From: Nanobdellota archaeon
GTDB lineage: Archaea; Nanobdellota; Nanobdellia; Tiddalikarchaeales; Tiddalikarchaeaceae
NCBI GenBank assembly: GCA_016931175.1
Contig: JAFGFH010000014.1
Location: 4,553-68,552, forward strand
Direction of reading: 5' to 3'
Length of the DNA stretch: 64,000 nt
Shown: positions 1 to 48,908 of the stretch, in pieces
How the letters are laid out: every line of letters starts with the position of its first letter
Numbering within the stretch: the first letter of the stretch is position 1
Notes under the pieces: generated by a model
Seen by the model: only the letters and a program-made list of their open reading frames with translations
Database searches by the model: none
What the model was told of the DNA's origin: nothing
Program-made: the position numbers and the translations under genes

Positions 1-295
1 TATTGTATAATATTTCAGTGCTGAAACTTATGCCGTTAATTGCTGTCAATGCCTGGTTTAATTCCTCACTTACCTCCATCTCTTTATTAATATAATCTAT
101 AATCTCTGGAGGGAACTCTTTCAAGTCCTCGTAATCTGTTCCTTGAAATAGTTCATTGTCAAACGTTAAGCTTACTTGTTTGAGCTGCTCGCAGACTACC
201 TTCATTGGGTAATCGCTGCCGCCTATATCTATTGATTGGCTGAAAACTATTGGGAAACTAACAAAGATTACTGCTAGAATTAATAATTTCTTCAT
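1..295 (-). CDS. Partial CDS (start at 295, runs past window start): secreted protein with N-terminal signal peptide MKKLLILAVIFVSFPIVFSQS
   Basis: Manual revcomp translation of 295..1 is open for 98 codons with no stop. Hydrophobic signal-peptide-like N-terminus. Missing from the ORF track because no stop lies in the window. Confidence 0.4.
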   Translation of the reverse strand, partial: MKKLLILAVIFVSFPIVFSQSIDIGGSDYPMKVVCEQLKQVSLTFDNELFQGTDYEDLKEFPPEIIDYINKEMEVSEELNQALTAINGISFSTEILYN

Positions 296-569: not shown

Positions 570-831
570 TAATTAATTCGGAAAAATTTGTTTTTTAAAA
601 AAATTTTGGAAAAAAGAGAAAAAAATAAGACAAGAAAGACGAGGTTAATTAATCCTCTTCATCATTCATGTCTTGTTCATCTTCTTCGTCGTCATCCCAT
701 GACTCTGGTTCTTCTGAATCCTTCTCGTCATCATCCCATTCGTCTTCTGAATCAAACTTCATATCAATTAAACCCTCACTGATTTTAATTAAAGATTGTT
801 TAAACCTTATATTTAAAAATGTTGTGAAGAA

Positions 832-904
832 TGGGCCCGGCCGGATTTGAACCGGCGACATTCGCCTTGTAAGGGCGACGTCATAACCTCTAGACCACGG
901 GCCC
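832..904 (-). tRNA. tRNA-Val (anticodon TAC)
   Basis: Minus-strand cloverleaf GGGCCCG/CGGGCCC acceptor, D-arm GTCT..TGAC, anticodon stem TCGCC/GGCGA with loop CTTACAA, T-arm CGCCG GTTCAAA TCCGG, discriminator A. CCA not encoded. Confidence 0.85.
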
Positions 905-950
905 AGTATAGGAATTAATAGAAAAGGAGTCTTTTAAAAAGTTTATCCGT

Positions 951-2735: not shown

Positions 2736-5312
2736 TTAAGTAATTAAAACAATTATTTGGTTTATAAAATTAACTAATAATTCAAAGAGGGAGACTTCGT
2801 CAAAGTAGTAAATTCCTTTACTATCCTCTTCTGTTGGCACAACTACCACACTGAATTGTTCAACAAGGTAATCCTCTGGGTTGTTAACATTATTCATTGT
2901 CAAAGTGAAGCTTATCTCTCCGCTTATAACGGGGTAAACGTCAATGTAAGTAACGAAGTCTGATAATGGAGGAACTGTTACAGTTAAAGTATTTGACTCT
3001 GACACTGTGAAGCGGGCGTAGCCGTTATCATAATTCAAAACCAGATTATAAGTTTGGAACTCGTTCAAAGGATTATTTATTGTGAAATTTATGGTTCCAG
3101 AATAAGTGTTGCCTGAAACTAAGAGTCCTGGAGGCAGTTCAACACTAACCTCGCTCGGCGTGTAATAACTCCTTGCCCAAGTATTATTAGATAAACAGTA
3201 ATAAGCGCCTTTAACAATTCCTGTAGCAACGTTGGTATCAACTCCTCCAGCATCACTAACCTGGTCGTTGCAGTCAAATAATTGCCCGCTTGAACAGTAC
3301 AAACTATTACTAATGTTCCCGCTGCTCATTGCAAAACCATTATAACAGCAGCTGCTTTGCCCGAGCCAGTCATCACTAGTCCCGTTGTTCCCGCAGCAAT
3401 AAGGACTCTCACCTGTGTTGTAATTTGGAATCCAAGACCAAGTCGTTGACGCGTTCACGCATAAACTGTAAGTATTCTCAGGATAAGAAGAGCAGTCAAT
3501 ATCAGGGGTTTCACAATACATGCCATAATCCTCCAAGCAGACTCCATCTATTAAACCGCAGTAAATTATTGAACCATTAAAGCAGGCGCCTGAACTATTA
3601 AAGAAAGTATCAAAGGCACCGTCATCACCGCAGCACGCAGCTATCAAATCACCGCTCCTGCCGCTGTTCCATGAAAAATCTAGTGCATCAAGATAAAAAT
3701 CACTATCCTGGTAGTATGATATGAAGTTCCAATTATCCAAATCAGTGCATGTGCCGTAAAAGCCCAGGTTGCTTCCAATTAATACATTATCTTTGTAAAC
3801 ACTCCATGACGAAGCACAGTCATAAATTACTTTATAATAATGCCATAATCCGTCTTTCTGATTCTTTGATTCCAATGTCTTAACCACACCATCATAGTAA
3901 AAGAGTTGGGAACTGCTCCAGTATAATCTAAGATTTCCTCCTCCTGAACCAGAAACCCATAGCCTGTTTTCACCAGAACCTCCTGGCATATTCTTCATCC
4001 AGAAATCAAACGTTCCAGACGCCTGGTTCTGGGTAGTAACACTGACTCCGAAATCACCATTTGTTGCACTCGTATGAAGCATGTGATAAACCTTTTCATG
4101 ACCATCCATTTGTTCAACAACTTCATTAGTTCCGTAATCAGTTCCATAAAGAACCCATCCTGAAGCTATACCTTCACCATTATTATCATAAGTGAATGAA
4201 TAAGTTGCAGGATAATTTGAGTTGTTAAACCAAGTATAGGAATAATCCTCACATAGTGTTTGATTAAAATCTAAAGGATGGAATGTTGCATATCCCTGAT
4301 AGCAGAAACTATTAGTTGTGCTTATACTATTATTATAAAAATTATCATACGCACCGTCATCACCGCAGCAGGATGCATTCGTTCCCGTTGTTGTTCCATA
4401 AAACCAGTCATAACCGTAAATAGTGCAAAGATTTTCACTGTCATCTAATCCATTAATGTAATACTCTGCGTTGTAGCAGAAACTTCCAGTATTCAAAGTT
4501 CCGTTGTAGAAAGTGTCATAAACGCTGTCATCACCGCAGCAAGAAGGAACAGTGTTGTTCGCGTTCAAAGTATTCCAGTCTTTATTCACTGCATCAATCC
4601 ATAAGTAATGGTTGGATGACGCGGAGGATATGACTGCTCCAGTTCCAAATAATTGATTCGTGGCTCCCAGAGTGCCCCAGTCACCGTACAAATTGCACGT
4701 TACTGGACTATTATCATCAAAGGTTACTTCAAAGGTTGAACTCGTGTTGTCAAATTCTACATTAATGTAGTGCCACTGGTTTGCGATTACTGTTCCTACT
4801 AGGGTCATGCCTGCGCCTGCGCCCTCAGCGCACGCAATATCTGACGTGATTATTATTGCTCCCAGGCTCGCAGTCCCGAATGCTAGAACAGGGCTCGCAC
4901 CTGCTGCTCCATTAGATAATAATTCTGCAATTCCGAAGGCGTTGCCAGGGTCTGCCATCCTAAACCAGAAACTCCAATTGCCTTTGGCCTGATTAAAATT
5001 AGCCGTTGCGGACAAGTATTTCTCATTATCAGGGTCAGCATCATTATCCCAGAACTCGTAAACCTTAGCGTGCCCGTCAACTTCATCAACTACGTAACCG
5101 TAACCAGGGTCCGCGCTGCCCCATAGCATGAAACCAGTCGGATTAATCGTGCCATTAGGGTAATCAAAGGATTCAGTAGCATTATAGTGAGAGTTGTTAA
5201 TCCAGTCAAAACCGCTGGACGTGCAAGCAGAAGCAGAAGTATCTTCAGCGAATGTTGCAAAACAAGGGCTAATAAGGATTATAAATATAAAGAAATACTT
5301 CAACCTCCCCAT
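2736..5312 (-). CDS. Secreted cysteine-rich surface protein with two ConA/LamG-like lectin-like domains and four CCGDDGAYD-type repeats
   Basis: ORF track gives 2736..5372. Start chosen at the internal Met (MGRLKYFFIFIILISPCFATFA signal peptide), which also avoids overlap with the structured RNA at 5346-5620. Repeats SCCGDDSVYDTFYN, SCCGDDGAYDNFYN, ACCGDDGAFDTFFN, YCCGNNGTSDDW. Two similar roughly 200 aa domains each containing DGH(A/E)KVY. Confidence 0.65.
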   Translation of the reverse strand: MGRLKYFFIFIILISPCFATFAEDTSASACTSSGFDWINNSHYNATESFDYPNGTINPTGFMLWGSADPGYGYVVDEVDGHAKVYEFWDNDADPDNEKYLSATANFNQAKGNWSFWFRMADPGNAFGIAELLSNGAAGASPVLAFGTASLGAIIITSDIACAEGAGAGMTLVGTVIANQWHYINVEFDNTSSTFEVTFDDNSPVTCNLYGDWGTLGATNQLFGTGAVISSASSNHYLWIDAVNKDWNTLNANNTVPSCCGDDSVYDTFYNGTLNTGSFCYNAEYYINGLDDSENLCTIYGYDWFYGTTTGTNASCCGDDGAYDNFYNNSISTTNSFCYQGYATFHPLDFNQTLCEDYSYTWFNNSNYPATYSFTYDNNGEGIASGWVLYGTDYGTNEVVEQMDGHEKVYHMLHTSATNGDFGVSVTTQNQASGTFDFWMKNMPGGSGENRLWVSGSGGGNLRLYWSSSQLFYYDGVVKTLESKNQKDGLWHYYKVIYDCASSWSVYKDNVLIGSNLGFYGTCTDLDNWNFISYYQDSDFYLDALDFSWNSGRSGDLIAACCGDDGAFDTFFNSSGACFNGSIIYCGLIDGVCLEDYGMYCETPDIDCSSYPENTYSLCVNASTTWSWIPNYNTGESPYCCGNNGTSDDWLGQSSCCYNGFAMSSGNISNSLYCSSGQLFDCNDQVSDAGGVDTNVATGIVKGAYYCLSNNTWARSYYTPSEVSVELPPGLLVSGNTYSGTINFTINNPLNEFQTYNLVLNYDNGYARFTVSESNTLTVTVPPLSDFVTYIDVYPVISGEISFTLTMNNVNNPEDYLVEQFSVVVVPTEEDSKGIYYFDEVSLFELLVNFINQIIVLIT

Positions 5313-5345
5313 ATTATTAATAAGAAGTGTAGCGGTTTTAAAAAA

Positions 5346-5620
5346 TGTAGTGGAGGGAGCTCCTAAGCACAACCATGCATCCCAGTGAACTTAACCAAAC
5401 ACTTTGCTCCACCCTGCTACCTCACGAACACCGAAGAGGATAACTTATAGCTGCTCCCGTCAAGGCCTGACTCTTTCATTAACATCAAGGTCCCGTGAGA
5501 CAAGGCTTCGACGCGCGGTGTAAGGGGTTCTCTAAGGTGCGAAGCCACACTCAGGTATTCAGCTCTGCCAGCAACTTGCAGCGAGGGGTTTCGTTAAAAC
5601 CCAGCCTATCCCTCCAAAAA
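5346..5620 (-). ncRNA. Candidate signal recognition particle RNA (7S/SRP RNA)
   Basis: Non-coding island of about 270 nt, visibly GC-richer than its surroundings. Terminal helix GGAGGGA (5352-5358) pairs with TCCCTCC (5609-5615), as in archaeal SRP RNA helix 1. The minus strand carries GUCAGGCC-UUGAC-GGGAGCAGC, resembling the helix 8 apex CAGGCCC-GGAA-GGGAGCAA. Several internal hairpins, e.g. GGGUUU-CGUUA-AAACCC. Strand and exact ends uncertain. Confidence 0.45.
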
Positions 5621-5661: not shown

Positions 5662-6732
5662 GTGAACGTTGAAAAAGAGATTAAAACCCTTGCAAAGACT
5701 TTAGTGGATTATTGTGTTAAGGTCAAGCAGGGCGAATTGGTTTTAGTAAAATTCAACGGTCCTGGCAGGCAATTAGTTGACGAGCTGACTAAATTAATAA
5801 GCTTGAAAGGTGCTTACTCACTGACTACTTTAAGGAATTATAATTATTACAAGTATTCTCCAATGAAGTCTTTGCAGAAAGAATTTCCTCTTGGGAAGGA
5901 GATAAGCGAGAAAGTAAATTGTGTGATATCAATTGATGACAGCGAGGACTTGTTTAAGCTTAAAATTGTTGATAATAAGAGGTTAAACGCTGCTTCGATT
6001 GCTAATCTGGAGAATGACAGGAGAATTATTGAGGAAAAAAAGTGGTGCATTGTAAGATACCCTACTAGTGCTTTCGCACAGCAGGCAGAGATGGGATTAG
6101 AAGAATACCAGAGTTACGCTTTTAAGACTATGAATATAAACTGGGTTAAGAAGAAAAAAGAAAGCGTTAAGTTAAAGAAATTAATGGATGATACGGATAT
6201 TGTTAGAATCGTTGGGGATAAGATGGATTTAAGTTTCAGCATTAAAGGAAGAAAGAGCATAATCTGTGCTGCAGAGTATAACATGCCAGGGGGAGAGGTT
6301 TGGACAGCTCCTGTTAAAGAAACAGTTAACGGCGTAATGCACTGCCCTGTTGCTTACTATAATGGTAAAAAGTTTGAAAACATAACACTTCATTTCAGGA
6401 AAGGAAGAATTACTGAATTCTCAGTTAAGAATAACAAGAAAGAGTTTGAGAAGATTATAAACGCTGACAAGCATGCAAGGTTCATAGGAGAGTTGGGTAT
6501 TGGAACAAATTATAATATTAAGAAAGTGGTTGGGGATATATTATTTGATGAAAAGATTGGAGGAACCATACATTTGGCGCTGGGTTCTGCTTACAGGGAA
6601 AATTTCAGGGAAGATTTTTCAAAGATGAGCAAGAAAGCAGGTGCGGAATTATCAAACGAGAGCGCGGTTCACTGGGATATGATAATAAGACCTAAGAGTT
6701 TATTCTTCGACGGTAAAAGAGTAAAGATATGA
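5662..6732 (+). CDS. Aminopeptidase-like protein (M29/AmpS-type, tentative); GTG start
   Basis: 356 aa ORF with EVWTAP and GELGIGTN segments reminiscent of thermophilic M29 aminopeptidases. Assignment by memory of family motifs only. Confidence 0.45.
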   Translation: MNVEKEIKTLAKTLVDYCVKVKQGELVLVKFNGPGRQLVDELTKLISLKGAYSLTTLRNYNYYKYSPMKSLQKEFPLGKEISEKVNCVISIDDSEDLFKLKIVDNKRLNAASIANLENDRRIIEEKKWCIVRYPTSAFAQQAEMGLEEYQSYAFKTMNINWVKKKKESVKLKKLMDDTDIVRIVGDKMDLSFSIKGRKSIICAAEYNMPGGEVWTAPVKETVNGVMHCPVAYYNGKKFENITLHFRKGRITEFSVKNNKKEFEKIINADKHARFIGELGIGTNYNIKKVVGDILFDEKIGGTIHLALGSAYRENFREDFSKMSKKAGAELSNESAVHWDMIIRPKSLFFDGKRVKI

Positions 6733-7534
6733 AAACAATAGATAAGAAGATTATTAAGTAATTGCTCTCATCCGCTACTATTATATTAAAACCTCCTCTT
6801 GAACTGCTGAAAACCTCGTAATTAAAGTTTATTATCACTCTGTTATAAACGCATTCCTCATCTGTTAAGTAAACAGTGTAAAAACCTGAAGCACCGCTCA
6901 TTACAGGTATTAAAGAATGGGAGAAAATTATGTCCTCTCCTGGCTGGAGGTGAAAAACTTCATTGCTTATGTGAGAAGTTGAATAATCACCTTTAGAGGT
7001 GATAATTTCAGAAAATATTGACTCTTCATAGTTAACGCTTACATTAAAATTAAGCGTTTGGAAACCGTTGTTGGAAACTGAGTATAAGAGTTTGCCGACA
7101 TCATCTGTTTGTATGCCAATTATTGTGTTAATATCCTCTGGTGAGGATATTTCAACAATTAAAGGAGAAGCAGTCAGTATGGTGTAAAGAGTAGAGTTAG
7201 CAATCTTTGTTCCTGAAGAATCATCATAAGTGAAGTTTGCAAAGAACTCGTAAAGGTTGTCTCTTGGTTCGCAGCCAATGCTTACTTCAAATATTACTTC
7301 AGCGCTTGAACCTGCAGGTATTGAATCTGGTGAGAAGTAAATATTATAGTTTGAAAAACCGTTAAGTGTTTTATTGGTTAAATAAGCAGCCTCATCCCCG
7401 TTGTTAACGAGTGTGAATGTTATTCTTGACAAAGAGTTTGAATAAACGTAAGTATAAGACGCGCTGTCAACGTTAATATTGGCTGCTCCGAAAGCAATAG
7501 GCAGCAAGAAGAGGAGCAAAAATAGTTTCTTCAT
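6692..7534 (-). CDS. Secreted protein with signal peptide and C-terminal transmembrane anchor
   Basis: N-terminus MKKLFLLLFLLPIAFGA. C-terminal hydrophobic helix followed by the basic tail YRRRINS. Beta-rich composition. Confidence 0.55.
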   Translation of the reverse strand: MKKLFLLLFLLPIAFGAANINVDSASYTYVYSNSLSRITFTLVNNGDEAAYLTNKTLNGFSNYNIYFSPDSIPAGSSAEVIFEVSIGCEPRDNLYEFFANFTYDDSSGTKIANSTLYTILTASPLIVEISSPEDINTIIGIQTDDVGKLLYSVSNNGFQTLNFNVSVNYEESIFSEIITSKGDYSTSHISNEVFHLQPGEDIIFSHSLIPVMSGASGFYTVYLTDEECVYNRVIINFNYEVFSSSRGGFNIIVADESNYLIIFLSIVFISLLFYRRRINS

Positions 7535-17050: not shown

Positions 17051-17124
17051 TGGGCCAGACCGGATTTGAACCGGCGACCACCACGTTATCAGCGTGGCGC
17101 CCCACCAGACTAGGCCACTGGCCC
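17051..17124 (-). tRNA. tRNA-Ile (anticodon GAT)
   Basis: Minus strand GGGCCAG/CTGGCCC acceptor, anticodon stem CCACG/CGTGG with loop CTGATAA, T-loop TTCAAAT, discriminator A. Flanked by a 9-bp inverted repeat GTGATTAGT (17042-17050) / ACTAATCAC (17127-17135). Confidence 0.85.
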
Positions 17125-28854: not shown

Positions 28855-30411
28855 ATGAAAAAACAGTATTATTTTTTTATTATTTCATTGATTGTTTTGT
28901 CTTCTGGTTTTGCTGATTCTTCATCAGAGGCTATGACTTATTCAGTTCCAGGCTCTGAAGGTGTTGTTGTAGACTCGTACCAAATTAGGGATGATATTTC
29001 TTGTTCTGTTTCCCAGGACGTTATTGATGCCGTCCAGTCCTTTTTAGGTGATAATTTCAACCTTTCAAGTTACGCTTACAGTAATTACAGTGACAGTTAT
29101 TGTTATTTTTATAATGATTATGAAAATATTTATATTAATTTCATATTCAAAGAGAGCGAGAGTGATTACAAGGGTAAACAGGTTAGTTTCTCTTTTTCAA
29201 CATCCCAAGTTTATGATTTTAATTCAGTCTTCTCTGATTTAGAGAACAAAGTCTTAGGTTATACTTTAAAACAGAAATACGTTGATTATTTAATCAGCGG
29301 CGTTGATGAAGAGTACTATGTTACTATTTCTAATAATTATGATGTTAAGAATGGCTGTGAATTGTTGAGGAATTTTTATAATTCACTAACAGGGGAGAAG
29401 TATTTTGAGGAGGATGAGTATTACTGCAGTATTGTTGCAAAGGTGAAGACTTCAGAGTTGAAATCATTGGTTGATGACAAGGTGGGTTACGTTTACTATT
29501 ACACTGATGATTTAAGCTTCACGTTTTCAGGCTATTTTGAAGGAAGCTTTGATTTAGAACAATTATATAATATTCTTGATTGTGATTTGAGCAAGAATAA
29601 TTATTATTATCCCGAGTTTGATTCTGATTGTTATGGCATATATAAGGATAAGCCAAGGATTTATTTCTCAAAGAGTGAGAGTTTAGGTGATTACTGGGTT
29701 AACTTGTACGTTTATGGTATTATTGGTGGCAAAGCACAGTTTAACTTTAATGCTTACGGTGAAGATTTAAGCCTGGCGTCCGCTCAAGCATGGGTTAATA
29801 ATCTTTTAAGCTCTTATTTCCCTTCTTATTCTTTAAATTTAGAGCTTAAAGAAGAGTATTATTCCACATATATTAGTGGAGAGAGTTTAGTTGAAGATTT
29901 CACCTTTGACGCAAGTGTTTTAATTAGTTTAGATTCAAGGCAGGAGCAGATGAACACTTATTATGAAGGGGATAATTTATGGATTACTTTATCCGAACCT
30001 TATATTCAGATAAGGCCAAGTATTGTTCTTTACAAAACATCTTCTGAGATTATGCCTTACCCTTACTGGCAGCAAACAATGGTTATTACCAGTGATAAAG
30101 TTTTTTCTTCCATAACTGTTGATGATAATGATGAATCGCTCGCTGTTGAAGAATTGAATAGTTTCGTGTCTCCTTTTATTGCTCCTGGAGACTGGGTTCT
30201 TGATATGAGCGTGTCAGGTCATTATTATATAATGCCTCTTGCTGAAGCAGGAGGAGTTGATGAGGCAGCAATAATCCAATCCTCTGCAGTTTCAGAAACA
30301 GGAGTAAGGGATGCTTTTTCAACCAATTATGATGTTTTTAATGAATTAGAAGAGACTGAGCAGGAAAATAAGCAAAGCTTCTGGGATTGGGTTTTAAGCC
30401 TTTTTAAATAA
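28855..30411 (+). CDS. Secreted Tyr/Asp-rich protein with signal peptide
   Basis: MKKQYYFFIISLIVLSSGFA signal peptide. 518 aa, acidic and Tyr-rich. Confidence 0.55.
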   Translation: MKKQYYFFIISLIVLSSGFADSSSEAMTYSVPGSEGVVVDSYQIRDDISCSVSQDVIDAVQSFLGDNFNLSSYAYSNYSDSYCYFYNDYENIYINFIFKESESDYKGKQVSFSFSTSQVYDFNSVFSDLENKVLGYTLKQKYVDYLISGVDEEYYVTISNNYDVKNGCELLRNFYNSLTGEKYFEEDEYYCSIVAKVKTSELKSLVDDKVGYVYYYTDDLSFTFSGYFEGSFDLEQLYNILDCDLSKNNYYYPEFDSDCYGIYKDKPRIYFSKSESLGDYWVNLYVYGIIGGKAQFNFNAYGEDLSLASAQAWVNNLLSSYFPSYSLNLELKEEYYSTYISGESLVEDFTFDASVLISLDSRQEQMNTYYEGDNLWITLSEPYIQIRPSIVLYKTSSEIMPYPYWQQTMVITSDKVFSSITVDDNDESLAVEELNSFVSPFIAPGDWVLDMSVSGHYYIMPLAEAGGVDEAAIIQSSAVSETGVRDAFSTNYDVFNELEETEQENKQSFWDWVLSLFK

Positions 30412-48374: not shown

Positions 48375-48908
48375 ATGAATAACAAGTCCCAAGAATTATC
48401 TCTTAATTTAATAGTTATAGGTTCTCTTGCTTTGCTTGTTTTGTTAATCGTTGGCGGCATTCTTATCTTTGGAGGGGGAGATTTATTGTCTGGTTTTACC
48501 AGCATTGGCGCTAGCGAGCAGGAAGTGACCCAAATCTCTTTTATAAACCATTGCAGGAGTTTATGCAATACACTTAATCTTAGGATGGACTGGGAACAGT
48601 TGGAGGACTCGCCAGAGCTTTTTTGGAAAGAGGTTAAGGATTACTGTTGCGAGCACTCAGATTTGGACAAGAGCGGAGGTTTGGACTATTACGGTGAGAA
48701 AGGCCCGGAGATATGTGCTTTAGCATTTGACTGCATGTTTGACACTCGATTGGCTTCAGAGTTCTGCGACGGCATTTACTTTAATAAATTAAATGGTTAC
48801 TATTATAGTTATTTATTCAGAACCATTACTACAACTGATGCTGGTGAGGAGTGGAGGTGCAATTATAATCCTCCTGGTTATAGTCCTGCAGGCAACTCTC
48901 CTATTTGA
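48375..48908 (+). CDS. Cys-containing secreted or membrane-anchored protein with N-terminal hydrophobic segment (possible class III/pilin-like signal)
   Basis: MNNKSQELSLNLIVIGSLALLVLLIVGGILIFGGG N-terminus. Confidence 0.4.
   Translation: MNNKSQELSLNLIVIGSLALLVLLIVGGILIFGGGDLLSGFTSIGASEQEVTQISFINHCRSLCNTLNLRMDWEQLEDSPELFWKEVKDYCCEHSDLDKSGGLDYYGEKGPEICALAFDCMFDTRLASEFCDGIYFNKLNGYYYSYLFRTITTTDAGEEWRCNYNPPGYSPAGNSPI

Follow-up and report, generated by a model that had tools for sequence, protein, structure and literature searches.

The window, that is, the whole stretch of 64,000 nucleotides analyzed here, carries on its reverse strand a gene for a protein of 858 aa with the SRP RNA directly upstream of it. 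An open reading frame was confirmed at 2736..5372 (-), and translation from the ATG at 5312 yields 858 aa with 29 cysteines and 18 N-x-S/T sequons, the sequon count having been suggested as a check by an earlier reading made from the sequence alone (the sequence-only reading). That reading had also proposed the 858 aa ORF itself, which has an exact NCBI counterpart ('MAG: hypothetical protein JW791_02575 [Nanoarchaeota archaeon]', 100% identical), and had left the start codon to be settled between 5312 and 5372. We place the start at ATG 5312 because the longer version, beginning at TTG 5372, would overlap the SRP RNA. The choice also follows from a T-run and a TTTTAAAA box located 22-31 nt upstream of this ATG. 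The features of the gene and its surroundings, in the direction of transcription and with the neighboring gene first, are:

6692..7534 (-): neighboring 280 aa gene, with signal peptide, two beta domains, 'ADES' motif, TM helix and RRR tail
5355..5614 (-): SRP RNA (Rfam RF01854, 66.9 bits)
2736..5312 (-): complete CDS, 858 aa and stop, start ATG 5312; protein identical to family member P0001
5247..5312 (-): predicted Sec-type signal peptide, residues 1-22 (MGRLK / YFFIFIILISPCF / ATFA), heuristic basis
5199..5246 (-): lone C-terminal half of a CCGDD module, residues 23-38 (EDTSASAC30TSSGFDWI), mature N-terminus
4563..5198 (-): LamG/ConA-like domain A, residues ~39-250 (HMM envelope 29-257)
4395..4544 (-): CCGDD module 1, residues 257-306, canonical, four Cys (56.6 bits; AlphaFold tandem model)
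4221..4373 (-): CCGDD module 2, residues 314-364, canonical, four Cys (64.2 bits; pLDDT 93-96 in the tandem model)
3645..4220 (-): LamG/ConA-like domain B, residues ~365-556 (hhalign, AlphaFold, Foldseek)
3432..3638 (-): CCGDD module 3, residues 559-627, with an insertion of ~35 aa between its halves, eight Cys in total
3177..3401 (-): module 4, residues 638-712, divergent CCGNN 'terminal' variant with a second CC, seven Cys (22.3 bits)
2841..3098 (-): seven-strand Ig-like beta domain, residues ~739-824 (AlphaFold strands, pLDDT 65-76)
2739..2801 (-): 'DE + helix' tail, residues 838-858 (...FDEVSLFELLVNFINQIIVLIT), AlphaFold helix at residues 842-857

The N-terminus of the protein resembles a Sec-type signal peptide, with a basic n-region (MGRLK) and a 12-residue h-region of KD 2.76, and the small-residue motif TFA stands just before E23. 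Homologues possess equivalent signal-peptide-like N-termini. Secretion, as had been claimed, is thus favored by heuristics of two kinds, the hydropathy of the h-region and the N-termini of the homologues. The 858 aa protein has no NCBIfam match, and thus none to the archaellin/pilin N-terminal domain (TIGR02537). Directly after the signal peptide lies half a module (C30...GFDW), which was overlooked in the sequence-only reading, as were the C-terminal Ig-like domain and the C-terminal helix.

Our analysis also bore out the internal duplication that had been described for this protein. Residues 30-248 and 354-550 share 28.7% identity over 223 aa (E~1e-17), and close copies of domain A are found in the relatives P0009, P0007 and P0034. 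The assignment of these domains to a lectin-like ConA/LamG type was likewise supported, by several approaches. A profile of 29 copies of the domain was compared by hhalign with 44 classic Laminin_G_3 domains of the same protein family and matched them at 97.4% (E 1.1e-11), while a PDB profile search gave weak matches to tetanus toxin Hc-N, pentraxin, neurexin and laminin G. AlphaFold predicted domain B as all-beta with a pLDDT of 85-96. The model covers residues 305-858 and was built from a cleaned alignment with two informative rows in the C-terminal half; full-length MAFFT alignments were left out of the modelling since they scattered fragments over the duplicated domains. When domain B was searched against the PDB with Foldseek, 149 matches were obtained at E<1e-3, all of them ConA-like folds, with TM <=0.59 on single-domain targets. 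They include the sialic-acid-binding domains of sialidases (2w68, TM 0.55), GH16, calreticulin, CBM66, BoNT Hc-N and neurexin LNS. Domain A is placed in the same superfamily because of its 28.7% identity with domain B. Pfam detected no PF13385 match to either domain of the 858 aa protein even at E<=10, and one relative's copy of the domain matches PF13385 at 5.9e-5. Both domains are therefore divergent ConA/LamG jelly rolls, members of the superfamily that lie outside the Pfam model as drawn. They share the beta-sandwich jelly-roll of Laminin_G_3, and classic PF13385 domains adjoin CCGDD modules in relatives; in contrast to these, however, they belong to a subtype of 29 copies across the family that is marked by P-x-G-W ... 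D-G-H-x-K-V ... F-W ... W-Y-H ... Y-x-D-A-x-x-Y-S-W.

Four copies of a cysteine-rich repeat with adjacent cysteines had been noted in this protein, and four modules are indeed present, with vicinal CC at residues 258, 315, 560 and 639. However, only modules 1 and 2 are canonical, and a fifth CC occurs at residue 655. At the DNA level, the pattern TGYTGYGGNRAYRAY occurs four times in the window, every time inside the 858 aa ORF, where shuffled sequences would lead one to expect 0.03. The module HMM covers modules 1 and 2 at full length and modules 3 and 4 in the N-half only (20-22 bits); the C-halves of the latter two, beyond their insertions, were recognized by eye, and AlphaFold gave a pLDDT below 50 for residues 550-735, which contain them. 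Their layouts recur elsewhere in the family. The insertion of module 3 brings four extra Cys and the arrangement is common to P0034 and P0007, while variants of the module 4 type precede the stalk in P0004, P0005, P0006, P0011, P0013, P0019, P0027 and P0034.

Structure prediction of the repeat module, which had been recommended, returned a confident fold (tandem-module model, pLDDT 88.4, pTM 0.74). Among complete modules of the family, 151 of 185 contain exactly four Cys and 175 contain an even number, and extra Cys come as pairs, one per module half. These counts lend indirect support to the earlier proposal of a disulfide-stabilized module, and the four-Cys module is probably disulfide-stapled, with a connectivity that we infer. 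An N-x-S/T sequon is located at +8 to +20 from the CC in 173 of 223 modules (78%), whereas across the family as a whole sequons occur at a background of 1.9 per 100 aa. The conservation of this sequon suggests that the modules are probably N-glycosylated.

The consensus of the module, ~48 residues long, is C-C-G-D-D-G-x2-D-x-F-Y-N-[GS]-[TS]-x(1-4)-F-C-x2-G-x(7-8)-D-x-N-Q-x-L-C-E-x-Y-G-Y-x-W, and its most conserved columns are CC (91%), G (91%), DD (87-88%), C3 (97%) and C4 (84%). The sequence-only reading would have been contradicted had the repeats belonged to an annotated family such as a PKD or EGF variant. No curated Pfam or NCBIfam model covers the module, neither in the 858 aa protein nor in 57 relatives, and the PDB held no sequence match to it at E<=10 and no fold match either. 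A phmmer match to the PDB entry 7ona ('SAKe6AC', E 2.7e-9) was rejected, as its score adds up over six identical designed repeats that reach 6-8 bits each and, taken singly, E-values of 5.7-31. A search of the literature found nothing relevant on CCGDD, nor on cysteine-rich, pilin or FG-GAP proteins of Woesearchaeota. An exhaustive profile search of 1.84 billion representatives recovered 67 protein clusters at E<1e-3, with 20 at E<1e-30, nearly all from Nanoarchaeia, which is also the taxon named for the family members; P0066 of Draconibacterium (E 2.4e-4) matches in the C-half region only and is probably no true member. The family comprises 246 module copies in 66 proteins, with a maximum of 15 per protein. 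Each of its 50% clusters holds one to four sequences, there are many divergent paralogues per genome, and the distribution is very patchy. When 185,579 species genomes were scanned for the DNA motif, 46 stretches turned up; they lie in 14 assemblies, and 12 of these assemblies are DPANN or unclassified archaeal MAGs. From these searches, the CCGDD module appears to be a lineage-specific connector that is new to the libraries searched and confined almost wholly to close relatives. In those relatives the modules link LamG, FG-GAP and RCC1 domains, the surface proteins concerned reaching a length of 4,102 aa, and the partner domains found alongside them are FG-GAP, Laminin_G_3, RCC1, sialidase CBM, BNR and DUF2341.

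The Ig-like domain near the C-terminus of the 858 aa protein has homologous counterparts in the C-terminal regions of P0004, P0005, P0027, P0034 and P0041, and its Pfam Big_3_5 match is faint. It is followed by a tail whose 'DE + helix' motif is common to P0027, P0021, P0042 and P0034. For the last 18 residues the KD is 2.03 and the hydrophobic moment 0.46; the segment is thus partly amphipathic, and it has no basic tail. In contrast, P0004, P0005, P0007 and the neighboring ORF at 6692-7534 end in a classic TM helix with a K/R tail.

Based on these observations, we propose, with a probability of about 60%, that the 858 aa protein is a glycosylated, disulfide-stapled, adhesin-type surface protein in which the modules act as spacers, the adhesive role being suggested by its domain types. 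After Sec export, the protein would be displayed, N-glycosylated and rich in disulfides, on the surface of a DPANN (Nanoarchaeota/Nanoarchaeia) cell. The two jelly-roll domains would be the likely ligand-binding parts, with a glycan or glycoprotein as the most likely ligand, and the CCGDD modules would string them together. Each module is predicted to form its own small fold of three short strands and a short helix, with the vicinal CC probably stapled to the third and fourth Cys by two disulfides, and would probably carry one N-glycan, besides an acidic cluster as a putative cation site. Tandem modules may then serve as stiff spacers keeping the lectin domains off the cell, and the Ig-like domain together with the hydrophobic/amphipathic helix may attach the protein to the envelope, either directly or via another protein. 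The source archaeon is tiny and probably host-dependent.

Organism-specific, heavily N-glycosylated LamG/ConA-like proteins of DPANN archaea have been reported, with a predicted role in host attachment (PMC7443923). A host- or partner-interacting lifestyle, which had been proposed from the sequence, is plausible in that it would fit both a DPANN archaeon and this published work. The 858 aa protein resembles the 'lectins' described there, for example in Nanohaloarchaeota, in being probably secreted, large, sequon-rich and strain-specific with LamG/ConA-like domain(s), and in coming from a DPANN genome. Those proteins, however, were described with PKD and LamG domains, whereas the CCGDD family uses a small connector of its own and apparently occurs only in Nanoarchaeia-type MAGs. 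A further parallel is the LNS-EGF-LNS arrangement of neurexin and laminin, in which LamG-type domains are likewise set apart by small disulfide-stabilized spacers or hinges; neurexin LNS5-EGF3-LNS6 (3asi) is among the Foldseek matches of domain B. Nevertheless, the CCGDD connector has four Cys starting from a vicinal CC where EGF has six, and no Pfam EGF match to it was found. The resemblance to neurexin is convergent and concerns architecture only. CCP/sushi, TSP type 3, LDL-A and cbEGF modules are also spacers of ~40-60 residues that occur in tandem with even Cys numbers and conserved acidic residues, but they show no significant similarity to CCGDD in sequence or structure, and neither a vicinal CC nor a conserved sequon inside the module characterizes those families. 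A Foldseek search of the module against the PDB returned matches of the very weakest kind, to tandem CCP modules (best E 1.4, probability 0.02).

DPANN archaea rely on physical contact with other cells. To our knowledge, the molecules that mediate this contact are almost entirely uncharacterized. The CCGDD module would provide a compact and confidently foldable marker for surface proteins of the lectin, propeller and pilin types in Nanoarchaeia, and its profile could be used to annotate the giant 'hypothetical' proteins of their genomes. The 858 aa member is short enough for expression, glycan-binding and structural work.

The relatives fall into proteins with a Sec signal peptide and a C-terminal TM anchor and proteins with an archaellin/type IV pilin N-terminal domain (TIGR02537, UpsA-like). 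The assignment of the latter to class III is confirmed by TIGR02537 and UpsA-like matches in 8-9 of 10 relatives tested, TIGR02537 itself matching 8 of the 10 (4 above the cut-off). The two classes end differently. A lone N-half lies exactly at the C-terminus of 13 of 18 class III proteins versus 2 of 23 Sec-type relatives (Fisher p=4e-5), and in seven class III genes the genome loci show natural stop codons after it. Conversely, 12 of 23 Sec-type proteins, the 858 aa protein included, begin with a lone C-half, versus none of 18 in class III (p=3e-4). This complementary distribution hints that half-modules may dock in trans. The lone N-half of a pilin-like protein (CC...C3) and the lone C-half of a Sec-type protein (C4...Y-x-W) would rebuild one module between them; lectin proteins could possibly mount on pilin-like or membrane-anchored partners in this way, or family members could join head to tail. 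Lone N-halves contain three or five Cys and lone C-halves one, so an unpaired Cys is left on each. Further, the paired extra Cys, one per half, indicate that the halves pack within the module, and a lone half would thus be an incomplete fold. Both classes occur together in at least three MAGs. However, pilin-type and Sec-type genes are not consistently adjacent in 8 kb loci, and the window contains no pilin-like partner with the CCGDD motif. The halves may also merely cap adjacent domains. The mature 858 aa protein has two 'odd' Cys elements outside simple intramodule pairing, C30 and the seven-Cys module 4, and these could pair with each other intramolecularly. We regard docking of split modules as unlikely, and it is similarly doubtful that half-modules fold in trans with an intermolecular disulfide, covalently mounting exchangeable lectin 'heads' on pili or anchored stalks. 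Cohesin-dockerin offers an analogy to this idea alone, as complementary terminal elements could assemble multi-protein surface complexes, but the CCGDD elements would be halves of one small fold, and what they display is a complementary distribution. If half-modules did dock, they would represent a new modular surface assembly and show how DPANN archaea put together and exchange the adhesive structures on their surface; if they do not, the family extends the list of lineage-specific extracellular repeats in a useful but unsurprising way.

We give equally little credence to a structural role, in which LamG domains and modules would form an S-layer-like cell coat or matrix and bind no partner. 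Glycosylation and abundant beta domains are typical of archaeal S-layer and envelope proteins, the surface-layer proteins of Mia14 (DPANN) are large, strain-specific and multi-domain (PMC5498576), and a stand-alone paralogue of the stalk/anchor lies 1.4 kb away. In contrast, the patchy, fast-evolving family with its many paralogues is more like variable adhesins than one abundant coat protein, and the pilin-like N-termini of some relatives also argue against a coat. An extracellular polysaccharide-degrading enzyme, with jelly rolls acting as GH16-like glycoside hydrolases or sialidase-associated enzymes, is highly improbable in spite of many Foldseek matches to GH16 (beta-glucanases, laminarinases, Crh transglycosylases) and BNR or sialidase-type domains in some relatives, since a regex search of the whole 858 aa protein found neither the GH16 catalytic motif E-[ILV]-D-[IVAF]-[VILMF](0,1)-E nor the loosened E-x-D-x(1,2)-E, the best profile kinship is with the non-catalytic Laminin_G_3, and the top fold matches (5mqr, 2w68) are non-catalytic lectin/CBM domains.

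Besides the proposed adhesin-type protein, the neighboring gene at 6692-7534 (-) also shows a relationship to the family. In a BLASTP comparison, its product aligned with residues 829-1090 of P0007 at 29% identity over 266 aa (E 1e-32), and by this similarity it is classed as a stand-alone copy of the C-terminal stalk/anchor region of P0007.

On the best-supported reading, the 858 aa query protein would be secreted, glycosylated and disulfide-stapled, a surface protein whose stiff connector modules hold out its two lectin-type domains. The analysis shows the architecture and the folds, whereas binding, glycosylation, disulfide connectivity and localisation are predicted. This reading fits published descriptions of organism-specific LamG/ConA-like proteins of DPANN archaea, which carry many sequons and are predicted to function in host attachment (PMC7443923; see also PMC5498576). 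This class of lectin-like DPANN surface protein is already known; neither its connector module here nor this divergent form of LamG is present in the libraries and literature that were searched.

The query lies in a minus-strand ORF (2736..5372), and its sequence shows 100% identity to 'MAG: hypothetical protein JW791_02575 [Nanoarchaeota archaeon]'. Two starts had been proposed, and the following features bear on the choice.

2736-5312, minus strand: query CDS from ATG 5312 (858 aa, 29 Cys, 18 N-x-S/T sequons; rich in S, N, G, T, D and Y)
5355-5614, minus strand: SRP RNA directly upstream of the query CDS (Rfam RF01854, 66.9 bits)

We assign the start to ATG 5312 because the extension to TTG 5372 enters the SRP RNA gene, as the sequence-only reading had warned, and because a T-run and TTTTAAAA box lie 22-31 nt 5′ of this ATG, after the SRP RNA. 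The T-run and box could be the promoter of a leaderless mRNA. The top Rfam model for this RNA is the bacterial large SRP, although the genome is archaeal.

The internal duplication noted earlier is significant, with residues 30-248 and 354-550 being 28.7% identical across 223 aa (E about 1e-17). Pfam and NCBIfam scans recognised no family anywhere in the query. A profile of five domain copies, present in the query and in two homologues obtained by word search (P0002 and P0003), gave weak but consistent PDB matches to tetanus toxin Hc-N, pentraxin, neurexin and laminin G (E 0.1-2), and Pfam Laminin_G_3 matched one domain copy at 5.9e-5. The larger type 1 profile (29 copies across the collected family), with the pattern P-x-G-W ... 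D-G-H-x-K-V ... F-W ... W-Y-H ... Y-x-D-A-x-x-Y-S-W, aligned by hhalign to a profile of 44 classic Laminin_G_3 domains, also drawn from these proteins, with 97.4% probability (E 1.1e-11, 115 columns). An AlphaFold model of residues 305-858 showed domain B as an all-beta sandwich (pLDDT 85-96), and all 149 Foldseek matches of the model in the PDB at E<1e-3 had the ConA-like lectin/glucanase fold. These included sialidase lectin/CBM domains (5mqr at 3e-7; the Vibrio cholerae sialic-acid-binding domain 2w68, TM 0.55), GH16 glucanases, botulinum/tetanus Hc-N and NTNH, calreticulin and CBM66, and neurexin LNS5-EGF3-LNS6. The GH16 catalytic motif was absent from the query. The profile, the model, the fold matches and this absence support the ConA/LamG type first proposed for the two large domains, which are a divergent LamG subtype and probably non-catalytic.

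Four CCGDD-type repeats had been described. Vicinal cysteines are indeed present at residues 258, 315, 560 and 639. When the 64 kb window was scanned with degenerate DNA encoding C-C-G-[DN]-[DN], there were four matches, each inside the query ORF (0.03 expected from shuffles). However, the canonical form is seen only in modules 1 and 2; in module 3 an insertion of 35 residues, four of them Cys, separates the two halves, module 4 belongs to a seven-Cys 'terminal' type that also precedes the stalk in relatives, and a fifth CC pair lies at 655. A seed profile of eight copies from three proteins, searched against 1.84 billion representative proteins, found just 67 at E<1e-3 (20 of these at E<1e-30), and local iteration collected 246 copies in 66 proteins, with a maximum of 15 per protein. 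The consensus was x-C-C-G-D-D-G-x-x-D-x-F-Y-N-[GS]-[TS]-x(1-4)-F-C-x-x-G-x(7-8)-D-x-N-Q-x-L-C-E-x-Y-G-Y-x-W. Occupancy was 91% for CC (positions 2-3) and G4, 87-88% for DD (5-6), 84% for D10, 86% for F12, 76% for N14, 97% for the third Cys (22), 87% for G25, 77% for D33, 84% for the fourth Cys (39) and 70% for W46. The repeats did not prove to be an annotated family: no Pfam family covered the module, neither that of the query nor those of 57 scanned relatives, no NCBIfam model covered it in the query, and a 30-row tandem-module profile found no PDB sequence at E<=10.

Complete modules contained exactly four Cys in 151 of 185 cases and an even number in 175. Extra Cys came as co-occurring pairs, one per half, which shows that the N-half and C-half pack together; both observations argue indirectly for the disulfide-stabilised module suggested earlier. 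An N14-x-[ST]16 sequon was present in 173 of 223 modules (78%; family background 1.9 sequons per 100 aa), including N270-G-T, N327-N-S and N572-S-S of the query. This makes it likely that the module is N-glycosylated, and the conservation of the sequon implies a glycosylation site under selection within a repeated connector. The invariant acidic residues D5, D6, D10 and D33 form a cluster that may bind a cation.

Module-bearing relatives have a modular build and reach 4,102 aa; the module joins their FG-GAP and RCC1 beta-propellers, classic Laminin_G_3, sialidase-type CBM/BNR and DUF2341. Their records are named 'Candidatus Nanoarchaeia archaeon', 'concanavalin A-like lectin/glucanase superfamily protein/DUF2341', 'FG-GAP-like repeat-containing protein' and 'flagellin-like protein'. 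The closest to the query, P0034 (614 aa), shares its layout except that it has a single LamG-like domain. When 185,579 species-representative genomes were scanned for CCGDDxxxDxFYN with an exact degenerate DNA pattern, 46 stretches matched, spread over 14 assemblies. Twelve of these were Woesearchaeota, Nanoarchaeia, 'Parvarchaeota' or unclassified archaeal MAGs, often with many loci each; the other two were short contigs binned as Methanobacterium and Burkholderiales. Contigs binned outside DPANN were 3-11 kb long: loci L013/L023 (JAQVTJ010000055, 'Methanobacterium sp.'), L032 (JBBQQC010000040, 'Burkholderiales') and that of relative P0009 ('Omnitrophica'). These contigs are probably mis-binned, and L032 was a single match with no long ORF carrying the motif.

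Two export types were seen in the family. One has a Sec-type signal peptide and a C-terminal Ig-like stalk, followed by a TM helix/basic tail or a 'DE + helix' tail; the other has an archaeal class III (pilin/archaellin-type) N-terminus, confirmed by TIGR02537 in 8 of 10 relatives tested and by UpsA/UpsB-like matches. Half-modules were divided between these types. A lone N-half (three or five Cys) formed the exact C-terminus in 13 of 18 class III versus 2 of 23 Sec-type proteins (p=4e-5), and a lone C-half (one Cys) stood at the start of 12 of 23 Sec-type proteins, including the query (EDTSASAC30TSSGFDW), versus 0 of 18 class III proteins (p=3e-4). Pilin-like relatives ending in an N-half (CCGDDxxxDNFSNSTHxCxNGVFS) include P0010, P0014, P0022, P0028, P0036, P0039, P0040, P0048 and P0050, among others. 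Seven class III genes stop naturally just after it; such UpsA-like, pilin-like genes with a class III signal lie in loci L015, L026, L030, L034, L040, L042 and L044. These distributions are compatible with lone halves capping adjacent domains, and in the query the odd elements, C30 and the seven-Cys module 4, could pair with each other. Complementation in trans, possibly disulfide-locked, would fit the complementary distributions and the odd cysteine left in each lone half; this reading has a low probability. Class III and Sec-type genes were not adjacent in the 8 kb loci examined, and the 64 kb window held no half-module partner.

In the model, the C-terminal part of the query holds a seven-strand beta domain (pLDDT 65-76) and ends in a helix. 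This helix is hydrophobic (KD 2.03), but its amphipathic character (moment 0.46) and the absence of a basic tail make it a tentative anchor. The 'DE + helix' motif DExxxF[DE]L[IL]xx[LF]xxxIFN (query residues 838-858, window 2739-2801; also in relatives P0027, P0021, P0042 and P0034) replaces the 'ADES + TM + KKK' anchor of other members, and its amphipathic helix may serve for docking or for in-plane anchoring. A stalk/anchor stands as its own gene 1.4 kb from the query 'head', which lacks a classic anchor. Its product matches the C-terminal stalk/TM-anchor region of relative P0007 (E 1e-32, 29% identity, 266 aa). The other ORFs named earlier as secreted or anchored lack the CCGDD motif and do have signal-peptide-like or N-terminal TM starts. 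The two tRNA genes are ordinary.

6692-7534, minus strand: 280 aa ORF with signal peptide, two beta domains, 'ADES' motif, TM helix and RRR tail
48375-48908, plus strand: ORF with N-terminus MNNKSQELSLNLIVIGSLALLVLLIVGG...
28855-30411, plus strand: ORF with N-terminus MKKQYYFFIISLIVLSSGFA...
1-295, minus strand: ORF with N-terminus MKKLLILAVIFVSFPIVFS...
831-905, minus strand: tRNA-Val(TAC)
17051-17124, minus strand: tRNA-Ile(GAT)
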